Shown piece after piece: positions 8-18,618 of a stretch of DNA of 64,000 nt. The position numbers and the translations under genes were made by a program. The stretch's first letter is position 1. Each line of letters opens with the position of its first letter. The DNA is from a candidate division WOR-3 bacterium (GTDB taxonomy: Bacteria; Hydrothermota; Tepidihabitantia; B3-TA06), in the NCBI GenBank assembly GCA_965649265.1, contig CBFGKC010000003.1, positions 32,001 through 96,000 of the forward strand, in the 5' to 3' direction. The notes below the pieces were generated by a model. The model did no database searches, was not told the DNA's origin, and saw nothing but the letters and a program-made list of their open reading frames with translations.

Positions 8-307
8 TCAAGATTCCTCCATCTCGTAGAGTCCTTCCGCAACCTTCTTGATCGTGACCTCGGGCCTCGGAAGCCTCAGAAGACCTGTGAAACCGTTCGC
101 GTCAATATGCCAGTGCTGGTGCGGATACTCCGGTCCCTGACAGGTGCAGTCGATGGCTCCTACCTTTGTCTTGAATTCCTTCCCCTTGAATCTCAAGGTA
201 AAGCTCTTTCCTGCGTCCGGAAACAGCTTCACCTTGTCCTTAAGGATAAGGATAAAACCTTCCTTGACCTCGGTCGTCGATAGTTTGCGTCTATAGATGT
301 CCGCCAA
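8..307 (-). CDS. small hypothetical protein with CxC...HxH motif
   Basis: 99-aa ORF directly downstream of the S8 protease; contains DCTCQGPEYPHQHWH. Confidence 0.7.
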   Translation of the reverse strand: MADIYRRKLSTTEVKEGFILILKDKVKLFPDAGKSFTLRFKGKEFKTKVGAIDCTCQGPEYPHQHWHIDANGFTGLLRLPRPEVTIKKVAEGLYEMEES

Positions 308-4374: not shown

Positions 4375-7035
4375 TTACAGACCGTATTTTTCCTTGCGTA
4401 TCTCGAACGCCTCGCGGCCGCCCTCAAGGATGCGCTCGACGACCTCCTTTATGACGGGCGAGTCAAGATAACCGTAACGGCCTTCCTTGAGATACGAATG
4501 ATCCACGTCCGCTTCGAGAGCGAGTATCTGTGCAGCATCGCCTAAAACGGGTATGTTGGCGTTGTGAGTCGCTACAAGGAACTGGCGCTTGTCCATCTCG
4601 GATCGGAAGCGCTCGGCGATTTCCTCCACGATGAAGGCGTTATCCAGATCCTCTTCCGGTTGGTCGACAATCAAGGGGTAAGGGGAGGTAAGCATCAGTA
4701 TTCCAAGAATGGCCGTGCAGCGCTGGCCATCCGAAAGGTGGCCGACGTCTCTGTAGCGCGGATCCCTGGTCGAACCGAGGTTGAGCTGAATGGCGACTTT
4801 TGGCGGGACGTCGACGGTCTCAAGATGCGCGAGGGTCTCCTCGTCGAAGCGGGGAACAAGGCTGTCCGGGCCCAGCTTGAGAAGCGCGGCAAGAGCGTCG
4901 CGATCACCGGATCTCGAGAGTTCGACAACTCTTGTGAAACTAAACTGTTCGTCGTTGACGATGCGGAGAGCAGTTTCTCGATTGATGGTCGGAACTATCT
5001 TCCGTATCTCGATGGCGGAACGTTCCGGATCGCCCTTCTCTGAGAGGTCTATTTTAATCTTTCCGCCAAGATCGGCATTCCATTTAGCCACCTTTTCCGC
5101 GAGTGTCGAGAATCTTAGTTTTCTGAGATCGCGAATCCGTTCGAGCATGAGCCGGCGTTCGTCGCGTTTCATGGAGAGCCTGAGCGATAGGGCGTCGCGT
5201 TCAAGCTTGCGCTCGCGCAGGCGCATGGCTTCTTTCTCCAGAGTGATGAACTCGTTGACATCTATGCCTGGGAAGCGCGCCTGAAGAGCTCGCAGGCTTT
5301 CCTGAAAACGCTCCTCGCCTTCCGCGTAAAGCCTTTCCCACTGTCCGCGGAAAGTGTTGTGCGAGGTCTCGGTGGTCTGAAGCGAGGCTATCAATGCCTG
5401 TACGTTGCGCTCGAAATCGGCAACAAACTCGACAAGTGTATTCTTGTATTCGCCAAGAAGTTCGGGGTGAAGCGGAGCCTCCCCCTCCTCTTGCAAGGCG
5501 CGGAGTCTTGAAGATGTCTCGCCGATTAGACTCAAAAGCATCCTCTTTATATCCGAAAGGACGTTCTCGCCGCGTTCAAAGATGTGACCTTCCTGCTCGA
5601 ACTTGCGTTTTTCCTCGATTTTTGCAGGAACGTCCATTTCGAGAAAACGGGCAAGCTTCTCCTCTGTAACGGGGAGCTTTGCGAGTTCGGTATCTCTCTT
5701 GGAAAATTCCGCGGCAATGGATGTTATCTCCTGCGTTTGCTTGGCAAGCTTTTCGAGAAGAGCGGTTTCCTCTTCACTATATGCGTTAAGTTCTTTCTCA
5801 GCAAGGCGTTCGAGAAGCGTTATCTGGAAATCCTGCCTTTTGGAGATTTCGTAAATCTCCTTGTTGCCGAACACCTCTGCACGGAATATATCCTTCGGGT
5901 TCAAGCTAAGCTTGGCACCGGTTTCTGAATCCCGCACGACGGGCTCAAATGGATAGATGCGTTCAATGATGTAACGCTTGGGCTGTGGTTCGTGCGATTC
6001 GACAAGAAGCGATATCTTTGAACCGGGAAGAAACACGTCTCGCAGCACCTGATCGTGATTCTCTCTGTTGCGATCGGTTTTGGGTTTTTCGTCGAGGGCG
6101 AAGCGAAGGGTTTCAATGATTGTCGTCTTACCGGTTCCGCGTCCGCCTATCATCGCATTGAAGCCAGGGTTGAGATGGATCTCGAGGTCGCTCAGGAATC
6201 CCCCTTCCCAGCGGGCCGCAAGTATCTTGGAGTATATTCTTTCCTCCGCCTCGTGAGGGAAACGAATCTTGGCTTTCCAGTCGAGAAGAGCGATTCGGAG
6301 TCCTTCCAGGTTGTGAGTTCCGAGCTTTATCGAAACCTTCTTTGTACCCACGTCTTGCGGCTTTGATGCAAAGGAACCTGCAAGCCTGGCAAGAGGCATC
6401 CGGCGTTCGAAGCCTTTCCTTGTTCCTGAAAGAAGTTCCTCGTCATCCGCCGATAAATGCTTGGTGGAATCGGGCAGAATAACTCCCCAAATCCATGGAT
6501 CGGCCAGAAGGGCGGGATGCTCCTTCAATACCTTGTTGTAATACAAAAGAACCATGCCTTCGGCCTTGCGGGCGCGTGCGACGGCATCTCGCGGCGAAAG
6601 CGCTACCGGTACAGGCTTGTTGTTGCGAAAGAAACGCTCACCTTGTCCCAGTCCCATCTCCGTCAGGAATGCGTCAATCTCGTGCTGTTTCTTTCCGGGC
6701 TCAAACAAAACCACTATGTCAACACCGTCTTCAAGCAATATCCGAAGCCCAGGGTAAATGCTAACACCGCGATTCTTAGCCTCGACCCCTAAATCGTCCA
6801 GCCAGGCTCCCCTTTCCTCGAGTCCTAAATTGTAATCTGCCGCCCCAACAAGACGGATATTTTTTTCCACCGCAGACGACACGATCAGATTGATAATCTC
6901 CTTCCTTGAGCTTTCTACCCCTGGATCAAATCCCTCGGGCTCTTTGTAATCGGGCGAGGCAGGGGTTTTTATAGCCAGGTCGGCCCAGATTGCCTTCGCT
7001 CCGTTTGCTTTAGCAAGAAGGTCTTCAAACGGCAT
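4375..7035 (-). CDS. TrlF/Ppl-like PHP + SMC-type ABC ATPase with degenerate PHP domain
   Basis: Walker A GGRGTGKT, coiled coil, signature LSDGQ, Walker B IVDQPEEDLD, ATH; N-terminal PHP-like DLAIKTPAS and AADYN. Confidence 0.85.
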   Translation of the reverse strand: MPFEDLLAKANGAKAIWADLAIKTPASPDYKEPEGFDPGVESSRKEIINLIVSSAVEKNIRLVGAADYNLGLEERGAWLDDLGVEAKNRGVSIYPGLRILLEDGVDIVVLFEPGKKQHEIDAFLTEMGLGQGERFFRNNKPVPVALSPRDAVARARKAEGMVLLYYNKVLKEHPALLADPWIWGVILPDSTKHLSADDEELLSGTRKGFERRMPLARLAGSFASKPQDVGTKKVSIKLGTHNLEGLRIALLDWKAKIRFPHEAEERIYSKILAARWEGGFLSDLEIHLNPGFNAMIGGRGTGKTTIIETLRFALDEKPKTDRNRENHDQVLRDVFLPGSKISLLVESHEPQPKRYIIERIYPFEPVVRDSETGAKLSLNPKDIFRAEVFGNKEIYEISKRQDFQITLLERLAEKELNAYSEEETALLEKLAKQTQEITSIAAEFSKRDTELAKLPVTEEKLARFLEMDVPAKIEEKRKFEQEGHIFERGENVLSDIKRMLLSLIGETSSRLRALQEEGEAPLHPELLGEYKNTLVEFVADFERNVQALIASLQTTETSHNTFRGQWERLYAEGEERFQESLRALQARFPGIDVNEFITLEKEAMRLRERKLERDALSLRLSMKRDERRLMLERIRDLRKLRFSTLAEKVAKWNADLGGKIKIDLSEKGDPERSAIEIRKIVPTINRETALRIVNDEQFSFTRVVELSRSGDRDALAALLKLGPDSLVPRFDEETLAHLETVDVPPKVAIQLNLGSTRDPRYRDVGHLSDGQRCTAILGILMLTSPYPLIVDQPEEDLDNAFIVEEIAERFRSEMDKRQFLVATHNANIPVLGDAAQILALEADVDHSYLKEGRYGYLDSPVIKEVVERILEGGREAFEIRKEKYGL

Positions 7036-8395: not shown

Positions 8396-9007
8396 TTACT
8401 CCTCATCGGCAGAAAAGATGTTCCTGTTGCGTCCAAGAATGTGCCAGTGGAAGCTGCCTTCCGTTTCCTGTTCCTCGTCACGGATGTCGATAATTTCCAT
8501 TTTTTTAAAAAGCGCGACTATCTCGGCGGCATCGCAAAAATGAAGTCTTTGTCCATCGGAAAGAAATGTATTAGGCTCGATCTCATCGCCCACTCCGAAC
8601 CGTGAGTTTTTCGTGGAGGCAAGTGTTAAATAAAAAAAGCCGTCCTTGCGAAGCAGGTCGAATTTAGAGGAAAGCTTTTCCCTCAGTTCTTCAAAAGATT
8701 GCTCGTAAAGAGTATTGAAGGCGAAGAGGAAATCAAACGAACCTGGGTTAAGTTTCGATACCTCATTGGAAGAGTCCCAGAGGATTTTTATCCTCGAACC
8801 GAAGGAACTCAGCTGTTCGTTTCCAGGGTCTAGTCCACAATCGCTGGAATAGAGCAGGGTTACTTTGAATCCTTCACGCGCGAATAAAAGGGTGCTTGCG
8901 GGCTCAGAACAACCGACCTGAAGAATCTTCTGAACTCCTTCCGCGTGAAGGAAGCGAGAGACGACTACCAGACGTCTGGTCGAGATATCGGTTCTGTCCT
9001 TGAGCAC
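8396..9007 (-). CDS. class I SAM-methyltransferase-fold protein with degenerate motif I
   Basis: KILQVGCSEP, SFDFLFAFNTLY, LLRKDGFFYLT. Confidence 0.7.
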   Translation of the reverse strand: MLKDRTDISTRRLVVVSRFLHAEGVQKILQVGCSEPASTLLFAREGFKVTLLYSSDCGLDPGNEQLSSFGSRIKILWDSSNEVSKLNPGSFDFLFAFNTLYEQSFEELREKLSSKFDLLRKDGFFYLTLASTKNSRFGVGDEIEPNTFLSDGQRLHFCDAAEIVALFKKMEIIDIRDEEQETEGSFHWHILGRNRNIFSADEE

Positions 9008-9027: not shown

Positions 9028-9468
9028 TCATTCATCGAACCATCTTTTAAGTGTTTCTCTCATCTTGCGTTCCACTTTTTCATCAAGGTCCTTTTCTTCC
9101 AGAAGCTTACGTTCAAGGAGTTCGCGGAGCCTTTTGCGCTCCCTCTGGCATTTGTTCAACCGGGCGGTTGCTCCTCCTCCTCCCCCCCAGATGATAAGGA
9201 TTCCCAGAAGGAACCCGAAGTCGTACCAGCCTCCGTTGTTGAAACGCTCATAGATCTCGACGTTCTGGTTGAAGAGCGAGATGATGAAGGTTATTATGGA
9301 AATCATTCCGTGCCACAACCCTTGCCAGAAACCGGCGGGATTCTGGACGTTCCAGCGGGTAACGTCGCCTGCGGCGCATCCAAGAGAAAAGACAACCAAC
9401 GCCCCGACCGCAGTCAGGACAAGATATTTAAGGGTTTTAGAGCTAACCCGGGTTGGAGAAGATACCAC
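9028..9468 (-). CDS. membrane lipoprotein (AGFWxGLWHG family)
   Basis: Lipobox SLGC; AGFWQGLWHG...NNGGWYDFGF; C-terminal coiled coil. Confidence 0.8.
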   Translation of the reverse strand: MVSSPTRVSSKTLKYLVLTAVGALVVFSLGCAAGDVTRWNVQNPAGFWQGLWHGMISIITFIISLFNQNVEIYERFNNGGWYDFGFLLGILIIWGGGGGATARLNKCQRERKRLRELLERKLLEEKDLDEKVERKMRETLKRWFDE

Positions 9469-9621: not shown

Positions 9622-10350
9622 TCATTGAGTGCTTGTTGACATCTCGAGTCTGGATTGAAGGAACCGGGGTGGTACATAGGCGAAAAAGCCTATGATAGCG
9701 GCAGCAAGGATCACTAACCTGAGCCAGGGCGGGCCGGGTCTGAGATAGTCCACGATTATCGCCGAAAGGGCGATAAGAAAGGAGAGGGAGGTCATAGGTA
9801 TGCGGTAGCGGGCCATTTTCGACCTTGCCCGCAGAAGTGCGAGATTCATTCCCAGCATGGCCAGTGCTCCCGGAACATAGAGGCCGAATATGGCTATCAG
9901 CCTGGCAATTTCGCTCGAAGGTTCCCATTCCGTGTACCAGAACTCGACAGTGTAGTTCGCCGCTCCTGCCGAGATGTTGATGATGTTCCAGACCAGCCAT
10001 ACGGCTATGAAAATTGAGGATACACCCAGGGCCAGATTCCTTTTCGAGGTAAGGAAATATACGAGAAGAAACACGGGAGGAGCAACAAGGAGACCCCCGA
10101 AAACGTTATCAACGAAGAAGAAGATGTAGTCAAGCTCCTGCCATCCAAGGTATCCGGCGGTCGTCCTCAGCGCGACGAAAAAGTAAAGGAGTGCGAGCGA
10201 GATCCAGTAAAAAGTAAAGGCGAAGCCAGCAGCTCTTACCCTTTCTCCCTTTTGCCGGCGCGCGACTATAATGCCCAGGAGCATTGATACCACAGCGATT
10301 GCAAGGCTGACTCCGACGTTTATTAATAGACCATACTTATCCGTGTGCAT
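9622..10350 (-). CDS. stand-alone 7-transmembrane receptor-like protein
   Basis: Seven hydrophobic helices, no soluble output domain; GAGGAGG RBS. Confidence 0.8.
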   Translation of the reverse strand: MHTDKYGLLINVGVSLAIAVVSMLLGIIVARRQKGERVRAAGFAFTFYWISLALLYFFVALRTTAGYLGWQELDYIFFFVDNVFGGLLVAPPVFLLVYFLTSKRNLALGVSSIFIAVWLVWNIINISAGAANYTVEFWYTEWEPSSEIARLIAIFGLYVPGALAMLGMNLALLRARSKMARYRIPMTSLSFLIALSAIIVDYLRPGPPWLRLVILAAAIIGFFAYVPPRFLQSRLEMSTSTQ

Positions 10351-10375
10351 GAGGCCTCCTCTTGGTTTTCAAGGT

Positions 10376-11020
10376 TTATCCGAAAAACTCGTCCACTTCT
10401 GACGCTATTTCAAGGAGAGGGAAGACACGGACGGTCTCGCCCTCCGCGAGCCCGAGCTCTGTCAGGGCAGAGGTGTTCAATTCCACCGCGTCGCCCAGGC
10501 CTTTACGGGTTTTTATCTTGAAAACGCGTGACTTTCCCGATGAAGACTTTATCTCCACCTGCCTCACCGTCGTTGAGCCTTTTGACAGTTTCCTCCACTC
10601 ATCCAGGACGTTGAGGTCGAGCACGACCTGGTCGAATCTTATCTTGCCGGCCACGGTTTGCAGTTCCTTCTCGCCTGGTTCCTTTGTTGAGGACGCGAGT
10701 GTTGACTCCAGCTGTTTCAGCACCCTGTCAAGGGCGGCTTTGAGCAGCAGCAGCTTCATGGAGAGCTGGCCGATGACGACGATGAAACCCTTCTCGAACG
10801 TTCGAATCGCGATGCGGCCCTCCTTGAATGTTCCGTATATGGCCTGAGGCTTTTGCTTGTGAGACTGGATACCCAGGCTGAATGCGTATCCGATGTTGGA
10901 AAGCAATGATTCATCCGTTTCATGAGTGAACGAGGATTCCAGAACCTGCCCCTCGTTATTGCAGAGGATTACCCCTTCAAGTCCTGCGACGGAGTGGAGT
11001 GACGTAAGAGCTTCCTTCAT
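10376..11020 (-). CDS. Roadblock/LC7 (MglB-like) protein with C-terminal beta-barrel-like domain
   Basis: LHSVAGLEGVILCNNEGQVLES roadblock start; C-terminal VELNTSALTELGLAEGETVRVFP. Confidence 0.8.
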   Translation of the reverse strand: MKEALTSLHSVAGLEGVILCNNEGQVLESSFTHETDESLLSNIGYAFSLGIQSHKQKPQAIYGTFKEGRIAIRTFEKGFIVVIGQLSMKLLLLKAALDRVLKQLESTLASSTKEPGEKELQTVAGKIRFDQVVLDLNVLDEWRKLSKGSTTVRQVEIKSSSGKSRVFKIKTRKGLGDAVELNTSALTELGLAEGETVRVFPLLEIASEVDEFFG

Positions 11021-11024
11021 TATC

Positions 11025-11924
11025 TCAGGATTCCTCTCTCAGGCGCTTCTCTATCTCAGAGCCGATCATGGCCGACGAAGAGTCGAAGTTTATTTTTGTT
11101 CCTATGTAAGTGTTTTTGAAGGGGTGAACGAGTATCCTGTGATCTGAAAATTCAATGGAACCATGAACCAGTTTGCCTTTGGCGAAAGTCTCTCCAACCT
11201 GCTCAAGCGCTTCTCCAAGAAGGGCAAGAAGCTGCGCCGTCTCCTGCCCGGAATCCATTTCCTGAGCCTCGAGGAGTGAGCCGTCCATGGAGGCGACGAT
11301 GATGCCTTTAACTCCCTCAATAGACATTACCTTTTGGGCAATTGGAGAACCTTCTGTGAAGCGGGTTTCCTGGGCTCTAACGGTTTCCGGTTCCTTACCG
11401 GTAACCGGCTTGGCGGGCTGTTCTGCAGGTCCCTGGGGTTCCCTGGACATCGGGGTTGGCGCTGGTTCTCTCTTGCCTGCAGATAAATCAGTCTGAGGAG
11501 GAGCCGCTTTTAACTCAAGAGAGGTTTTTCCCGTGGGAGGGGGAGGGGTGGCTATCTCGAAAACCGTCTCCCTGGTTTCGGTTTTGTTTGCGGGTTCGGT
11601 GGTTTTCGATTTGGCTCGATCCTCGATTTCGGTGAACAGCTTGTCGAGGGGTTCATTAATGGTTCTTACAGGAAGAACGGGCAGCTCCTCGAGCCAGTAT
11701 TTGCCCTTTGACCAGGACAGAATGAGCGTGAGTGCATCCAGACCGGAAAGGTTGCGGCAAGCGGCGTTCCTTACACTGCCTGCAGAGCAATGTATTATGG
11801 CTTCCTCACCGTTTTCGGCCTTAAGGAGTACCTCGTATGTTCCGGTGAGCTGACAAATTAACTGTATAAGGTTTTTTAATCTCTGGGTAGAGTCGAACTC
11901 TCCGAAAGTGTCCTGAAGAAGCAT
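11025..11924 (-). CDS. DUF4388 (PatA-N-like) + Pro-rich linker + Roadblock/LC7 protein
   Basis: LKNLIQL...GLDALTLILSWSKGKY...RTINEPL; C-terminal MSIEGVKGIIVASMDGSLL. Confidence 0.82.
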   Translation of the reverse strand: MLLQDTFGEFDSTQRLKNLIQLICQLTGTYEVLLKAENGEEAIIHCSAGSVRNAACRNLSGLDALTLILSWSKGKYWLEELPVLPVRTINEPLDKLFTEIEDRAKSKTTEPANKTETRETVFEIATPPPPTGKTSLELKAAPPQTDLSAGKREPAPTPMSREPQGPAEQPAKPVTGKEPETVRAQETRFTEGSPIAQKVMSIEGVKGIIVASMDGSLLEAQEMDSGQETAQLLALLGEALEQVGETFAKGKLVHGSIEFSDHRILVHPFKNTYIGTKINFDSSSAMIGSEIEKRLREES

Positions 11925-12124
11925 AAAGTATTATAGAATAGGTAAGAATTGATGCTTGTCAAGAGAAAGCGGTTGCAGAGTCGGAAAAAGCAAAAGAGAC
12001 GTTCAAAAAACGGCTTTGAGCATTTCCAAAGGGACTGATGCATTACCACTCAACACCTCAGAAACCATCTTTTCGAGAGTTCCTATGTACGTCCGAAAAC
12101 GGACTGCAAGGAGAGGGTGCGTTC

Positions 12125-13417
12125 TTAAAAAGTTGTCCCGCTTGCCCAGTTGAAGTCCTCGACAAGAATCGAAGGTAAAAGCATCGCTCCCTGGCGGCGT
12201 TCGACTGTTCCCATTGCCAGAGGGTTTTTGAGAATCCTCATGGGTGAATCATTGAATCTCATGTGCTTTACCGCATGTTTAATCTTGCCGTCTTCAACAT
12301 AGAAGAAACCGTCGCGGCTCGTGCCCGTAAGCACAAGATCCATCGGGTTCACGTAACGGATATACCAGAGATTCATGACCAGGAGTCCTTTGTCTATCTT
12401 GCGAATCAACTCATCAAGGCTCTTGTTGCCGCCGGTCATAGAGAAAGTCATCGACGAAGTAACGACAGGTATGCGCTGCTTCTTTGCCCAGTACCTGGAC
12501 GTCCAGAGATTCGTCAGAGTTCCGTTTTCGATGTATGCCGTTTTCTTTCTGGCAATGCCGTCATTGTATAAATCCATGGGCGTTCCCGGATTCCTGGGAT
12601 CCGAAGGATCGGATATTATGTCTATTTTCGAGGAGATGAGCTTTTTACCGAGTTTGTCTTTGAAGAAGCTTCGACCTTCGTCCGCAGCGCGTCTGTCCAT
12701 TTGAAAGACCGCGAAAGGCATCAATTCGGCAAGGGCTCTTGCGGTGATAAGTGTTTTGTAAACGCCGGGTTTGAGTTCCTTCGGGTTTCGACCGAGTTCC
12801 TCTGTGCGAAAAGCCTCGATTGCTAGCGCCTGTGGATTGATTTTAGCAATATCCTCGTCCTGGGCCACGGCGGACCCGGATGAATCACCGGTCTGGGCGG
12901 TCATCGAAAACTCCGCCTCTGTCCATACGTGCTCTCCGGCCAGTCCTCGTGTGTTCCCGACGTAGAGGCCATAATCACCTGAACGGTATATGCCTGATGC
13001 AGTCGTTTTGCGCGAGGCTGCCTCGGCCGTGATCTCGCGAATCACCCTTGCCTTAGCGTCTACCGGTGTCTTTGCGGTCTTCTCGAAGAATCGCTCGACC
13101 TTAAGGAAGCGCTGACCTTGAGGCAACTCGATATACTCGGGGTCCTCGGGAGTGGCCTTGACTATGGCTTCGGCCTTGCGGAGAGCCGCCAGCACTCCGC
13201 GCGAAGAGACGTCGGATGTCTCGGCCTTGCCTCTGCGGTGTTTGTTAACAGCGGTAACCTCGAGATTGATGCGGTGCCTTGTGGTGTTCTGCGTTATCCG
13301 GTTCTCGGCGAAGCGAGAAAGATTCTCGTTCTCCACATAGAGAGTAACGTTTGCATCCTCGACTTTCTTGCGCTTGGATATGAGATCTATGGTTTCTTTG
13401 AGCCAGTCTTTGTTCAT
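12125..13417 (-). CDS. pmbA: PmbA/TldE family subunit
   Basis: SRFAENRITQN, LWYIRYV, TGTSRDG, MRFNDS; ATGA overlap with the tldD stop places the start at 13417. Confidence 0.85.
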   Translation of the reverse strand: MNKDWLKETIDLISKRKKVEDANVTLYVENENLSRFAENRITQNTTRHRINLEVTAVNKHRRGKAETSDVSSRGVLAALRKAEAIVKATPEDPEYIELPQGQRFLKVERFFEKTAKTPVDAKARVIREITAEAASRKTTASGIYRSGDYGLYVGNTRGLAGEHVWTEAEFSMTAQTGDSSGSAVAQDEDIAKINPQALAIEAFRTEELGRNPKELKPGVYKTLITARALAELMPFAVFQMDRRAADEGRSFFKDKLGKKLISSKIDIISDPSDPRNPGTPMDLYNDGIARKKTAYIENGTLTNLWTSRYWAKKQRIPVVTSSMTFSMTGGNKSLDELIRKIDKGLLVMNLWYIRYVNPMDLVLTGTSRDGFFYVEDGKIKHAVKHMRFNDSPMRILKNPLAMGTVERRQGAMLLPSILVEDFNWASGTTF

Positions 13418-14859
13418 TTCTTCCCCCGGCTGACGCGAATGCGGCGTACCCTTACCCATGGGCCGCCGTTTGTCATCTGGGCAATTTGAATGGGTTCGCC
13501 CTTTCCGCAGTTTCGCAGACCTCTGGGTTCCCACCACTTCTGTCCGGCAATCATATCCACCGAACCCCAGAACTCCGGGGTTATGGATTGATAAATCACG
13601 TCCCTAAGCATTCTTGTCTTCTTACCGTTCTTGATCTCGTAAAAGAGGTCCCCCCCGAACTGAAAGTTCAGTCGGCGCTGGTCTATTGACCAGCTCCCTC
13701 TTCCTTCGATCCAGATGCCTTTTTTAACGTCGGCGACAAGATTTTCAGGCGATATATTCTTGTTACCCGGCATAAGAAAGAGGTTAGGGATGCGATTGAT
13801 GGGCATCGACGCGTAGCTGTCGGCCCTGCCCGAGCCGAATGAGCGATTGTACCCTGCCCGCATCGCGACCTCACGGGTGGAGCTGTAATTCCTGAATATG
13901 CCATCCTTTACGATATCCCACCGCTGCCCTTGGACACCCTCGTCGTCGTAACCGGTTGATGCAAGTCCGCCCTCAAGGGTGTTATCGGCAACAAAATGGA
14001 TGAGATCGGAACCGTAGCGGAAAGCGCTATCCTTCTTGTCGAGCGTAACAAAGCTCGTGCCTGCGAAATTTGCTTCGTAACCGAGCACCCTGTCGAGTTC
14101 GGTTGCGTGACCTACCGATTCGTGAATGGTCAAAGCCAGGTGTGCAGGATCGAGGATAAGGTCAGTCGGGCCCTCCGGAGGGTAATCGGCAGAAAGCTTG
14201 GCAACCGCTTCTTCGGCGATGCGCTGGGCATTCTCTTCCATCTTAAGGCTAAGGATGTGTTCCCAGCCCTTGTTCATGGGATGATCCTGGAAGGTTCTTG
14301 TCTGGCTGTCGCCCTTGCCTACTGCAACAGCCGTATAATCACCGCCAACTGTAGTAATAAGCGTTTCTATAAAGGAACCTTCGGTTGACGCAAAAAACTG
14401 GTGTCTGCGGGTTATGTGGCTGTTAGCTCTGGCCTTGACTATGCCTTTTACGCCAAGCATTGTCTCGTTGATTCGTAAGAGCATGGCGATTTTTTCTGCA
14501 ATAGGTATAGTAAAGGGGTCTATCTCTACCTTTGTTTCAAACCTGTCTTTATGGGCGGGCTCAGGCGCGAGCGTAATCTTCTCCTGAATTGTAAGGGCCG
14601 ATGCCTTAGCTACTGATACCGCCTCCCTTGCGACCTTTTCGGCGGAGCGCTTGTCAAGACGACTTATGGAAGCAAAGCCCCATGCCCCATTCTTCAAGAC
14701 CCTAATGCCAATACCAGCGTCACTTAGGTCTCTCGTGGCCTTGGGCGACCGGTCTTCGACGTAAAGAAACTGGTCTTGAATCGAAAGGACACGGGCGTCG
14801 GCGTAGTCTGCCCCGGCAAGCCTGGCAACTTCGACTGCGCGCTCGACCAAATCCTTCAT
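13414..14859 (-). CDS. tldD: TldD metalloprotease
   Basis: HESVGHATELD zinc motif, YDDEG, NCGKGEP. Confidence 0.92.
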   Translation of the reverse strand: MKDLVERAVEVARLAGADYADARVLSIQDQFLYVEDRSPKATRDLSDAGIGIRVLKNGAWGFASISRLDKRSAEKVAREAVSVAKASALTIQEKITLAPEPAHKDRFETKVEIDPFTIPIAEKIAMLLRINETMLGVKGIVKARANSHITRRHQFFASTEGSFIETLITTVGGDYTAVAVGKGDSQTRTFQDHPMNKGWEHILSLKMEENAQRIAEEAVAKLSADYPPEGPTDLILDPAHLALTIHESVGHATELDRVLGYEANFAGTSFVTLDKKDSAFRYGSDLIHFVADNTLEGGLASTGYDDEGVQGQRWDIVKDGIFRNYSSTREVAMRAGYNRSFGSGRADSYASMPINRIPNLFLMPGNKNISPENLVADVKKGIWIEGRGSWSIDQRRLNFQFGGDLFYEIKNGKKTRMLRDVIYQSITPEFWGSVDMIAGQKWWEPRGLRNCGKGEPIQIAQMTNGGPWVRVRRIRVSRGKK

Positions 14860-16624: not shown

Positions 16625-17017
16625 TTACCCGGAACGGAAGTTTTCGCTTATCCTTTCCCCGGCGTCACGCGCGTTCATGATTAGCTTGCCTATCGGGATT
16701 TTTGCGTCGCCGCGAGCTATCAGCATAAAGTCCCTTCTGCCGTCTATCGCAAGGGCGTAGAAGTAACCGCTCAAGGCCCTCACAATCATCTCTTCGCAAC
16801 CGCTCAGGTTCATCCTCTCGAGCGTCTCCTTGGCCTCCTCGAAAAGACTTAAGGACGATACCGCAGCCATGTCGGTGTTGTTTCCGTTTTGAGATATCTT
16901 AGAATACTTGCATACGGGCAAGCCCTCGCGATCGATCAGCATACTCATTGTCATGCCCGGCGTGCCAATCACCAGTTCCCTCAAAATTCCCTGAACCTCG
17001 TGCGGTTCAGACGGCAT
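16625..17017 (-). CDS. Roadblock/LC7 domain protein
   Basis: TPGMTMSMLIDREGLPV...MAAVSS; typical 130-aa length. Confidence 0.82.
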   Translation of the reverse strand: MPSEPHEVQGILRELVIGTPGMTMSMLIDREGLPVCKYSKISQNGNNTDMAAVSSLSLFEEAKETLERMNLSGCEEMIVRALSGYFYALAIDGRRDFMLIARGDAKIPIGKLIMNARDAGERISENFRSG

Positions 17018-17280: not shown

Positions 17281-18618
17281 ATGAAGTATCAAAAAAAGTT
17301 TCGCACCACAGATATCATTACCTTACTACTTACTATAACTCTTATCCTTGCAGTTTCCGGATGCAAGAAAGAGTTTTCCGGCGACCCTTACGTTCGTTAT
17401 GGGAAGGAGACAGGCTCCAGGCTGGCTGCAGCCGATGAGCTTTTTTTCTCAAAGAAGTTCGCTGAAGCAGAGAAGGCATACCGCAAGATAGTTGAGAGTG
17501 ACGCGAAGTGCGTGGATGCGGTGATAGGTGTAGGCCGCGCCTTGAGATACCAGGGCAAGCTGGATATGGCGGCAAAGGAATTCAAAAAGGCATACGAGAT
17601 GGACAAGTCCTACCCGCTCGCGGTACTTTTCTACGGCGAGGCGCTGATTCCGTGGTACGGCATGGCTCCGGCGGATGTATCGCAAAGCAACCTGGTTGAC
17701 AGGGGAATCGGCTATCTTGAGGAAGCATTGAAAACAAATCCTGGGCTTGTGGAGGCGCATCTCTCACTCTGGCCAGCCTATCTTTGTGCGGGTGATTTTG
17801 AGAAAGCAAACGCGCAGCTCAAGGCACTCATCGAGAAGAACTACTTTCCCAAACCGGTGCTCGACTTCGGCTACAACCTTCTTGCAGGCGCGGATAAGGA
17901 TGCAATAATCTTCACCAACGGCGATATGGATACCTATCCGCTTCTTGCGCTCCAGCAGGGTAAGGGCATACGTACCGACGTAAGGGTCGTGAACGTAAAC
18001 CTCCTGAACCTTCCCTGGTACGCGAAATACGTGCGCGATCAACTGGGTGTGCCGATATCGTACCCGAACGAAATACTCGATACCCTCAAGCCAATGGTGC
18101 TTAATCCCGCTCAAAAGGAAGAAGACGTTAAGCTTGTCTCGGATCTTCTCATAGACGAGATAATCGCGAACGCCGGGAAAACACCTATTTACTTCGCGAT
18201 GCTTCCCCAGGCGTTGATCGAGCGGCACTGCGTCAACCGCTCATGGGAGGGTCTTTTGACGAAAGTCGTGTACGAACCGGTAAATAACTACCGCAATCGC
18301 GCCAGGGCACTGGAGAATGTTGAAAAGAATTATCGAATAGAGATCCCCGATGCAAAGGTTGCCTGGACCTCCAACCTTTCACCTCTCACGCGAGACATTT
18401 CAGGGCTTCTCATCAATTACGGCGCGGTGTACAATATGATTGCTGCGGACTTCGCTGATGAGGGGCTGAAGAACGAAGCCGTAAAATACTTCCGCAAGGC
18501 GGCCGACGTTTTCAAGAAACTTGATGCAAAGGAGATGCTCCGTACTACTGTTGAGAACTGGCTTCGCATCAATCCCTCCGATCCCGAAGCGCTTGGGCTT
18601 AAAAAGAGTTTAACTTAA
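17281..18618 (+). CDS. TPR lipoprotein with DUF2723/TMEM260-like soluble domain
   Basis: Lipobox VSGC; TPR repeats; IIFTNGDMDTYPL...RTDVRVVNVNLLNLPWY. Confidence 0.75.
   Translation: MKYQKKFRTTDIITLLLTITLILAVSGCKKEFSGDPYVRYGKETGSRLAAADELFFSKKFAEAEKAYRKIVESDAKCVDAVIGVGRALRYQGKLDMAAKEFKKAYEMDKSYPLAVLFYGEALIPWYGMAPADVSQSNLVDRGIGYLEEALKTNPGLVEAHLSLWPAYLCAGDFEKANAQLKALIEKNYFPKPVLDFGYNLLAGADKDAIIFTNGDMDTYPLLALQQGKGIRTDVRVVNVNLLNLPWYAKYVRDQLGVPISYPNEILDTLKPMVLNPAQKEEDVKLVSDLLIDEIIANAGKTPIYFAMLPQALIERHCVNRSWEGLLTKVVYEPVNNYRNRARALENVEKNYRIEIPDAKVAWTSNLSPLTRDISGLLINYGAVYNMIAADFADEGLKNEAVKYFRKAADVFKKLDAKEMLRTTVENWLRINPSDPEALGLKKSLT

Follow-up and report, generated by a model that had tools for sequence, protein, structure and literature searches.

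How does a seven-transmembrane (7TM) protein that carries no output domain pass on what it senses, and through which partners? The question is raised by three minus-strand genes of a candidate division WOR-3 bacterium, here called A, B and C, which lie in a 64,000-nt stretch of contig CBFGKC010000003.1 (the window; all coordinates below are window positions). A encodes a PATAN (DUF4388) and a Roadblock domain, B a Roadblock fold followed by a barrel and a short acidic tail, and C a 7TM protein. Our data suggest a split receptor-adaptor module in which C is the 7TM sensor and A/B the cytoplasmic adaptor, docked through the tail and likely acting on an MglA-type output; we give this reading a probability of about 0.5, and such a module is probably both real and undescribed so far. 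The finding goes further than the initial annotation of the locus, made from its sequence, had seen: C belongs to a cross-domain family of stand-alone 7TM proteins shaped like G protein-coupled receptors (GPCRs), whose partner is usually encoded just upstream and ends in a short C-terminal tail.

Linkage of the seven-helix gene to a tailed partner

Within the window's phylum, the family of C occurs in 5 of 272 genomes (G000 included), all from the window's family-level group, where 4 of the 10 other genomes have it. All four genomes with a C orthologue (G000, G100, G099 and G102) share one gene order, namely A, then B ending in E[ED]FFG, then C. The orthologues are 55-71% identical and the flanks of A-B-C differ between genomes; the linkage that had been read from one locus is thus a conserved one. 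A paralogue, C' (39% identical), directly follows C in one genome. Residues S207, E208, V209, F212, F213 and G214 of B are invariant in 15 homologues, giving the common end SEV[DE][DE]FFG, and B is the only one of 7202 open reading frames (ORFs) of at least 80 aa in its genome that ends in [DEK]FF[GDEA]. The NCBI name for relatives of both A and B is candidate division WOR-3 bacterium.

A distant member, 32% identical to C and from a record titled Acidobacteria bacterium, extends the family to a second bacterial phylum, where 9 of the 401 genomes sampled have it, always as a single copy. In all nine loci the adjoining upstream gene of the same strand encodes a B-type barrel (hidden Markov model [HMM] E 1e-9 to 1e-11; hhalign 96-97%) in a protein that ends in EKFFG (three loci), EDFFD (two), DDFFE (three) or DDFFA (one). 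The barrel-tail protein begins with a Pfam DUF4388 domain (58-66 bits) at six of the nine loci and has no Roadblock domain there. Full-length hhalign of these fusions against A gave 0.2% for the PATAN part, compared with 97.3% in the domain-level test described below. In Rosetta-stone fashion, the PATAN-barrel-tail protein unites in one chain domains that are divided between A and B. From it we infer that A and B are held together as a pair by their Roadblock domains, and that the link to the 7TM protein runs through the barrel-tail. The constant companion of the 7TM gene is the barrel with its acidic FF tail, often accompanied by PATAN, rather than Roadblock as such; Roadblock here looks like a dimerisation platform that joins the PATAN domain of A to the barrel-tail of B. 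A guess that ORFs of 99-126 aa and the N-terminal halves of 210-aa proteins (L121-L123) are Roadblock-like was dropped: scored against the Roadblock alignment of the window's genome, they gave hhalign probabilities of at most 2% and no HMM matches.

The family also reaches into archaea. One representative comes from a Thermoplasmatota metagenome-assembled genome (MAG), in which a KaiC-like ATPase and a Roadblock protein flank four tandem 7TM paralogues (L015 3769-7030, L016 228-1449), the Roadblock protein scoring 17.7 bits with Pfam and E 3.7e-7 with a Roadblock HMM from the window's genome. In the phylum of this MAG, 29 of 301 sampled genomes have the family, often in many copies. The array adjoins two T2SSF genes (pilus/archaellum platform) and topoisomerase VI genes. 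The loci analysed from the phylum were 40 haloarchaea-like regions of 61-74% GC, in 35 of which 39 family ORFs were called and their neighbours scanned against Pfam; the caller, based on GC at third codon positions, missed the family gene in the other five (L051, L065, L075, L079 and L083). Nineteen of the 39 genes have a directly upstream same-strand gene whose product ends in [RK]xxxL[IVL] (e.g. DRSRELI, RRVKELV or ERARRLV). These tailed proteins are nine histidine kinases, six single-domain KaiC-like ATPases, three PAS-PAS-V4R proteins, each preceded by a triple-KaiC protein, and one fragment at a contig end. Elsewhere in the same loci the ending occurs in 4 of 231 ORFs, three of which lie, by their coordinates, directly upstream of family genes missed in calling. 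Kinases encoded downstream of the 7TM gene mostly have no tail (4/5); the one in L054 carries it. Because the archaeal family pairs with kinases and KaiC-like ATPases, signalling to a GTPase is not supported as a property of the 7TM family as a whole.

Further archaeal arrangements were seen. A haloarchaea-like operon of triple-KaiC, PAS-PAS-V4R ending in GLARRVKEL[IV] and family 7TM recurs in L053, L059 and L078, and the literature found on Haloferax CirA and the Qar system makes no mention of a 7TM neighbour. In L072 (3550-4410) the 7TM protein itself ends in NRVRDLI, a partner-type tail, which hints at 7TM chains. All 11 ANME-2/Methanosarcinales loci (L130-L140) have the order glpX-type fructose-bisphosphatase (FBPase), 7TM, an unknown protein of 119-124 aa, and RimK-like ATP-grasp. 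The suspicion that these 119-124-aa ORFs, and small ORFs before KaiC genes, are Roadblock-like was discarded on the same grounds as above (hhalign at most 2%, no HMM matches).

Architecture and kinship of the three proteins

The initial annotation had described C as a protein with seven transmembrane (TM) helices, a hairpin-like loop between TM4 and TM5 and no kinase or cyclase output, A as DUF4388-Roadblock and B as Roadblock-barrel, and our analysis agrees with each of these descriptions. The hydropathy profile of C has seven peaks, and the positive-inside rule places its N-terminus outside and its C-terminus inside. An AlphaFold2 (AF2) model from a 36-row alignment (pLDDT [predicted local distance difference test] 94.3; predicted template modelling score [pTM] 0.91) likewise has seven helices, with a beta-hairpin as the TM4-TM5 loop (Table 1). 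The protein ends without any further domain, and 33 of 34 family representatives are shorter than 300 aa. No Pfam or NCBIfam family was found for C at threshold; its 27 relatives reached no Pfam cut-off and had no transporter or enzyme family among their matches. The low scores of C with MHYT (13.3 bits) and MAG3450_fam (13.1 bits) were attributed to chance. Judged by database searches, the family is small in sequence space: a word search of 5.8 billion clusters returned eight family proteins at E up to 0.001, and a full HMMER search of 1.84 billion entries returned the 34 representatives, nearly all of about 240 aa. Conserved across the family on the cytoplasmic side are R32, R39, Y98, R174, R181-Y182-R183 and A224-Y225-x-P227-P228, and conservation also spans the helix core and the hairpin (W138, P160).

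In structure searches the model of C resembles GPCRs. The top 50 Foldseek matches in the PDB were all GPCR chains (best GABA-B 6w2y_A, E 4.6e-4, query-normalised TM-score [TMq] 0.56), three matches having E up to 0.001. A second aligner, independent of Foldseek and run over 48,161 chains, had only GPCR-fold entries among the top 50 listed: adhesion, Frizzled/Smoothened, class A and class C receptors, LYCHOS/GPR155 and two de novo 'GPCR-like fold' designs. Its best match was ADGRL3 (8jmt_A; Z 16.0, root-mean-square deviation 4.0, 208 residues aligned), and LYCHOS (8wr3_B) had Z 14.2. Since a Z of about 14 is within reach of unrelated helical bundles, we read these matches as a GPCR-like helix arrangement, that is, a likeness of fold only and not homology. 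C resembles eukaryotic GPCRs and the GPCR-like LYCHOS/GPR155 in its N-out/C-in orientation and a short helix after TM7, and may do so in its predicted 7TM arrangement, but no sequence relation was found, no GPCR Pfam family being matched by C or its 27 relatives. A heterotrimeric G protein, for which no search was made, would not be expected, the partner here being a Roadblock/PATAN adaptor. GPCR classes are marked by motifs such as DRY and NPxxY; where GPCRs have these, the family of C conserves Y98, RYR (181-183) and AYxPP (224-228). The accessible part of one paper notes GPCR-like folds in archaeal kinases and bacterial cyclases, and states that GPCRs are not traceable to prokaryotes by sequence (PMC13581589).

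A second relation emerged from profile comparison. Against 23 HisKA_7TM domains from archaeal genomes, the family of C gave an hhalign probability of 87.8% (E 3.4e-6) over 175 colinear columns. Profiles of membrane proteins, such as those compared here, are easily biased by composition; the reversed controls stayed at 1.3% and 4.5%, and circular-shift controls kept the cognate register and so do not count as independent. The Pfam model PF16927 (HisKA_7TM) matched neither C at E up to 0.1 nor the 27 relatives at E up to 0.01. As leads only, the nearest ESM Atlas clusters (score 0.95-0.96) hold hypothetical proteins of 242-244 aa, mostly archaeal and commonest in Promethearchaeota, and the nearest cluster with any Pfam family (score 0.88) has HisKA_7TM on 10% of its members. 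With moderate strength, this points to a remote kinship between C and the domain that serves archaeal histidine kinases as their sensor. Both have seven TM helices of similar length, the profile match is colinear over TM1-TM6, and in archaea genes of the C family abut kinase genes. HisKA_7TM, however, is the N-terminal region of mainly archaeal histidine kinases, whereas C stands alone, was never kinase-fused in the loci read, and here has Roadblock/PATAN proteins and not a kinase as its partners. In the part of PMC5847659 that is accessible, HisKA_7TM is listed as a haloarchaeal kinase sensor domain.

The Roadblock domain of A is recognised by Pfam Robl_LC7 (23.4 bits; cut-off 23), while its N-domain falls under the cut-off of 25 for DUF4388 (PF14332; 19.2 bits) and was assigned with hhalign against 12 Pfam-verified DUF4388 domains (97.3%, E 2.4e-11, 86 columns; reversed control 0.2%). 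An HMM of this N-domain matches four REC-DUF4388 paralogues in the genome, which also has a 107-aa stand-alone copy of it. In an alignment of 14 homologues, the N-domain is highly conserved and the Roadblock domain conserved, with a variable Pro-rich linker between them. Two homologues of A (P0077 and P0078) are annotated with Pfam PF27410.1, a family absent from the Pfam version scanned, which may already describe part of A. B scores 16.8 bits with Robl_LC7 on residues 3-43, below the cut-off, and its assignment comes from an AF2 model (15-row alignment; pLDDT 72.6, pTM 0.43). By Foldseek, residues 1-111 match LAMTOR2/p14 (6ehp_B; E 7e-7, target-normalised TM-score [TMt] 0.76), MglB (6h5b_B) and Asgard Roadblock proteins, and residues 118-204, with pLDDT of about 80-86, match the double-psi beta-barrel of VCP-like ATPases (7dbo_B, E 3e-5, TMt 0.72; 7du7_A, TMt 0.75; p97 N-domains, E about 5e-6). 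The likeness of its Roadblock domain is greatest to LAMTOR2, of the Ragulator-Rag Roadblock system.

Docking of the tail on C is suggested by charge. At loop position 37, 11 of 17 bacterial members have R, and 16 of 19 archaeal tail-linked members have E or D; positions 176-177, Q/K-S in the bacterial proteins, are acidic in the archaeal ones. Each time, the loop charge is opposite to that of the respective tail, a suggestive complementarity. A docking C-terminal peptide on the partner would parallel the C-terminus of G-alpha. In a complex prediction with A 1-105, A 185-299, B and C as chains and C as the scored partner, the score was 0.42 (runs of 0.42, 0.41 and 0.44), the best of three controls reaching 0.00, including 0.00 with B replaced and C kept; runs agreed in at least 61% of contacts, and partner pLDDT was at least 77. 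Of 80 solved complexes, 58 attained the mark used, as did 2 of 110 mismatched pairs. Because passing scores of 0.60 or less comprise both of those mismatches along with 7 of the 80 solved complexes, a score of 0.42 counts as weak support for a contact of C with the A/B chains.

From proposed receptor to possible output

Under the split receptor-adaptor reading, C would be a stand-alone seven-helix sensor without an output domain. The Roadblock domains of A and B would pair and unite the PATAN domain of A with the barrel and acidic EV[DE][DE]FFG end of B; barrel and tail would dock on the basic cytoplasmic face of C, and a change in C, set off perhaps by a ligand on the side of the hairpin, by a lipid or by the state of the membrane, would alter the action of the PATAN/Roadblock platform. 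The most likely target would be an MglA-type GTPase encoded elsewhere, the alternative being the polarity or pilus machinery touched by PATAN proteins in other bacteria. Comparative data, together with a weak modelling signal, favour the step from receptor to adaptor. As to the step from adaptor to GTPase, small GTPases are the established partners of Roadblock domains, and the gene content described next makes one a reasonable target for A/B.

Suitable GTPases are present. The genome has 12 Roadblock matches, and on contig C4 a 191-aa MglA-like protein (L112 3989-4564) follows a 164-aa MglB-like one. Contig C5 (L110 10856-12891) has an operon in which Robl156 and a 344-aa protein precede a 205-aa small GTPase (L110 12274-12891); the 344-aa protein has a Pro-rich linker, a Roadblock-like C-terminus (E 1.1e-4) and an N-terminus that looks PATAN-like by eye only, with no Pfam match. 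In this operon the genome may possess a counterpart of the A/B pair that is linked to a GTPase. Five REC-DUF4388 proteins are also encoded, two of them REC-DUF4388-Roadblock. Within the window, a further stand-alone Roadblock gene (16625-17017, minus strand), whose 130-aa product scores 20.4 bits with Pfam, under the cut-off, adjoins a TPR protein gene (17281-18618); the Roadblock product is 37% identical both to a Roadblock protein of contig C11 and to the Roadblock domain of a REC-DUF4388-Roadblock protein.

The initial annotation had proposed that the 7TM protein signals through a Roadblock heterodimer to a GTPase encoded elsewhere, in a manner distinct from actinobacterial conservons. The genome does have MglA-type GTPases, and contact of C with the A/B chains has weak support (0.42 against 0.00), but the operon is tied to no particular GTPase. 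Linkage of a GTPase gene was seen at none of the 13 bacterial loci, so this last step is one that we infer. The contrast with conservons also stands, the operon having neither a kinase-like sensor nor a GTPase. As in the conservons of Streptomyces (CvnA-D), a membrane sensor and a Roadblock protein would form one signalling unit. The module here differs in having a 7TM sensor, not a kinase-like one, and two Roadblock proteins with PATAN and barrel domains; CvnA-D includes a DUF742 protein and an MglA-type GTPase, and here HATPase, DUF742 and GTPase families were all absent from A, B, C and the flanking genes. Conservon kinases carry a conserved C-terminal motif, LPxR, and genes for MglA and MglB sometimes lie near PATAN genes, according to the accessible part of PMC4316618. 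The MglA/MglB polarity switch of Myxococcus and Thermus, with its Roadblock co-factors, is echoed by the match of the Roadblock fold of B to MglB and by the MglB-like/MglA-like pair of the genome, but A/B do not sit beside a GTPase (those being on contigs C4 and C5), have extra domains and are tied to a membrane protein. PatA-type REC-PATAN regulators share the PATAN/DUF4388 domain with A, and two paralogues in the genome are REC-DUF4388-Roadblock; A has no receiver domain, and its presumed input is the 7TM protein, through B.

Several observations weigh against the split receptor-adaptor reading. In the flanks read at the 13 bacterial loci, neither the module nor its neighbourhood contains a GTPase gene. 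C' occurs apart from A-B in two places (G102:C83 and G101:C432) without a tailed neighbour, 20 of the 39 archaeal family genes have no tail-tagged upstream gene, and a signalling neighbour was seen at 0 of the 11 ANME-2/Methanosarcinales loci. Only the hairpin of C, some 15 residues, is exposed outside, and a ligand-binding domain is not evident. The model of B is of moderate quality, and the HisKA_7TM probability is open to the bias already mentioned. The charge switch amounts to a single contrast of bacteria with archaea, one that untailed archaeal members share. Finally, the complex prediction returned no interface, was a job unlike those of the tool's calibration, and yielded a score that concerns C as partner and not the pairing of A with B.

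Rival readings differ mainly in where the signal enters or leaves. The output may not be a GTPase at all: the receptor-adaptor module would be as proposed, but PATAN would have as its direct target a motility or pilus motor, or else the two-component network. GTPases are linked at no locus, the adaptor is PATAN-barrel-tail without Roadblock at 6 of the 9 second-phylum loci, and, according to the accessible part of a preprint (10.1101/2021.06.11.447907), the type IV pilus motor of Synechocystis has PATAN-domain response regulators among its interaction partners. Here, however, PATAN is joined to Roadblock domains, with their established small GTPase partners, and the same genome has the parallel Roadblock/344-aa/GTPase operon; we consider a non-GTPase output somewhat unlikely, though a serious contender. 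Alternatively, C may be a membrane anchor and not a sensor, tethering the PATAN/Roadblock adaptor to the membrane or pole much as the Ragulator anchor tethers its Roadblock subunits, with the signal entering elsewhere, for example through REC-PATAN regulators. Such a role would fit the near lack of extracellular mass in C beyond the hairpin, and tail docking would suit anchoring equally well; the five REC-DUF4388 proteins, two with Roadblock, suggest that PATAN/Roadblock units in this genome are usually driven by phosphorylation. We nevertheless find an anchor unlikely: the family of C appears remotely related to a histidine-kinase sensor domain, its archaeal partners include otherwise soluble kinases that need an input, and conservation across the helix core and hairpin (W138, P160) exceeds what a plain anchor needs.

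Information could also flow the other way, C being a transporter, channel or membrane enzyme regulated by A/B, or by kinases and KaiC-like ATPases in archaea. The metabolic setting of the ANME-2/Methanosarcinales genes, between glpX-type FBPase and RimK-like ATP-grasp genes at 11/11 loci, and the lack of a signalling neighbour for about half of the archaeal members are consistent with this. Those 11 loci, however, are close relatives (61-95% identity) and count as roughly one observation, the top 50 of both structure searches held receptor-fold chains or designs and no transporter or enzyme, and no Pfam transporter or enzyme family was found in C or its 27 relatives; reversed flow therefore seems quite improbable. 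Least credible, at very long odds, is that A, B and C are functionally unrelated and merely share a transcript. Gene adjacency is in general weak evidence by itself, but a barrel-tail gene is linked to the 7TM gene at 13 of 13 bacterial loci in two phyla, the linkage persists despite 7TM identities of 32-56% and a changed domain partner, and the B-type tail occurs once among the 7202 ORFs of the genome.

A wider and more speculative reading would generalise the split receptor-adaptor module, and we regard it as possible but doubtful. Family members would be 7TM 'receptors in trans' that select interchangeable transducers (histidine kinases, KaiC-like ATPases, PAS-V4R proteins or PATAN/Roadblock adaptors) by a short, lineage-specific tail on the protein encoded just upstream, EEFFG in bacteria and RxxELI/V in haloarchaea-like genomes, with docking on the cytoplasmic face of the receptor resembling that of the G-alpha C-terminus on a GPCR. 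The bacterial 7TM protein, Roadblock pair and MglA-type GTPase might then be a prokaryotic counterpart of the eukaryotic 7TM/Ragulator/Rag logic.

Operon layout, neighbouring genes and implications

A, B and C are closely spaced (Table 1), with 4 nt between A and B and 25 nt between B and C, and GAGGAGG stands ahead of the ATG of C. The promoter placed by the initial annotation ahead of A was found there as a promoter-like site that ends about 10 nt before the ATG, with TATAAT a few bases further on. The 4.1 kb scanned contains four such sites against 2.7 +/- 1.5 in shuffles, so that position, and not number, speaks for this one as a promoter. Because a second promoter-like site (9522-9495) precedes the next gene, the transcription unit probably ends with C; no minus-strand terminator-like site was found to close it, the sole such site (9421-9400) falling inside that next gene.

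Table 1. Positions of the features of the A-B-C locus in the window (nucleotides) and in the encoded proteins (residues)
Feature	Position	Strand	Basis
Gene A	11025-11924	(-)	299-aa ORF
Gene B	10376-11020	(-)	214-aa ORF
Gene C	9622-10350	(-)	242-aa ORF
Promoter-like site, TTGACA-16-TATTCT	11935-11962	(-)	10/12 consensus matches
A, PATAN/DUF4388 domain	residues ~16-104		Pfam and hhalign
A, variable Pro-rich linker	residues ~105-190		homologue alignment
A, Roadblock/LC7 domain	residues 197-271		Pfam Robl_LC7 (PF03259)
B, Roadblock fold	residues 1-111		AF2 model, Foldseek
B, double-psi-like beta-barrel	residues 118-204		AF2 model, Foldseek
B, disordered C-terminal tail	residues 205-214		AF2 model
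B, codons of S207-G214 (SEVDEFFG)	10379-10402	(-)	invariant alignment columns
C, TM helices	residues 6-31, 36-68, 71-101 (kinked), 104-128, 147-174, 178-203, 209-225		AF2 model
C, short helix after TM7	residues 229-240		AF2 model
C, extracellular TM4-TM5 beta-hairpin	residues 130-135/140-144		AF2 model

Two minus-strand genes lie 3' of C behind their own promoter-like site, one for a 146-aa membrane protein with a highly charged C-terminal stretch (9028-9468) and one for a 203-aa methyltransferase-like protein (8396-9007). This pair also follows C in G100 and C' in G102:C83 and thus travels with the 7TM gene. Directly upstream of the operon are two TldD/PmbA-family metallopeptidase genes (12125-14859, minus strand), which are not kept there in other genomes. 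A gene at 4375-7035 (minus strand) encodes a protein of 886 aa that has long coiled-coil-like stretches as well as a Walker-A-like motif and is 80% identical in the sister genome G100.

In the literature searched, we found no description of the stand-alone 7TM family, the barrel-FF-tail adaptor or the tail rule. Already in print, as far as the accessible parts of the two papers go, are GPCR-like folds in archaeal kinases (PMC13581589) and PATAN genes near mglA/mglB (PMC4316618).

Prokaryotic 7TM sensor modules are known mainly fused to their outputs, and Roadblock/PATAN proteins are known as regulators of MglA-type GTPases and polarity whose inputs are largely unknown. A split system, if true, would connect soluble kinases and KaiC-like ATPases of archaea to an input at the membrane and provide Roadblock/PATAN adaptors with a receptor. 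The tail rule, if it holds, would provide a simple and testable recognition rule resting on a few terminal residues. The module would then allow the joint action of a GPCR-shaped protein and Roadblock-fold adaptors to be studied in a tractable prokaryotic setting, and may bear on the origin of 7TM-to-GTPase signalling.

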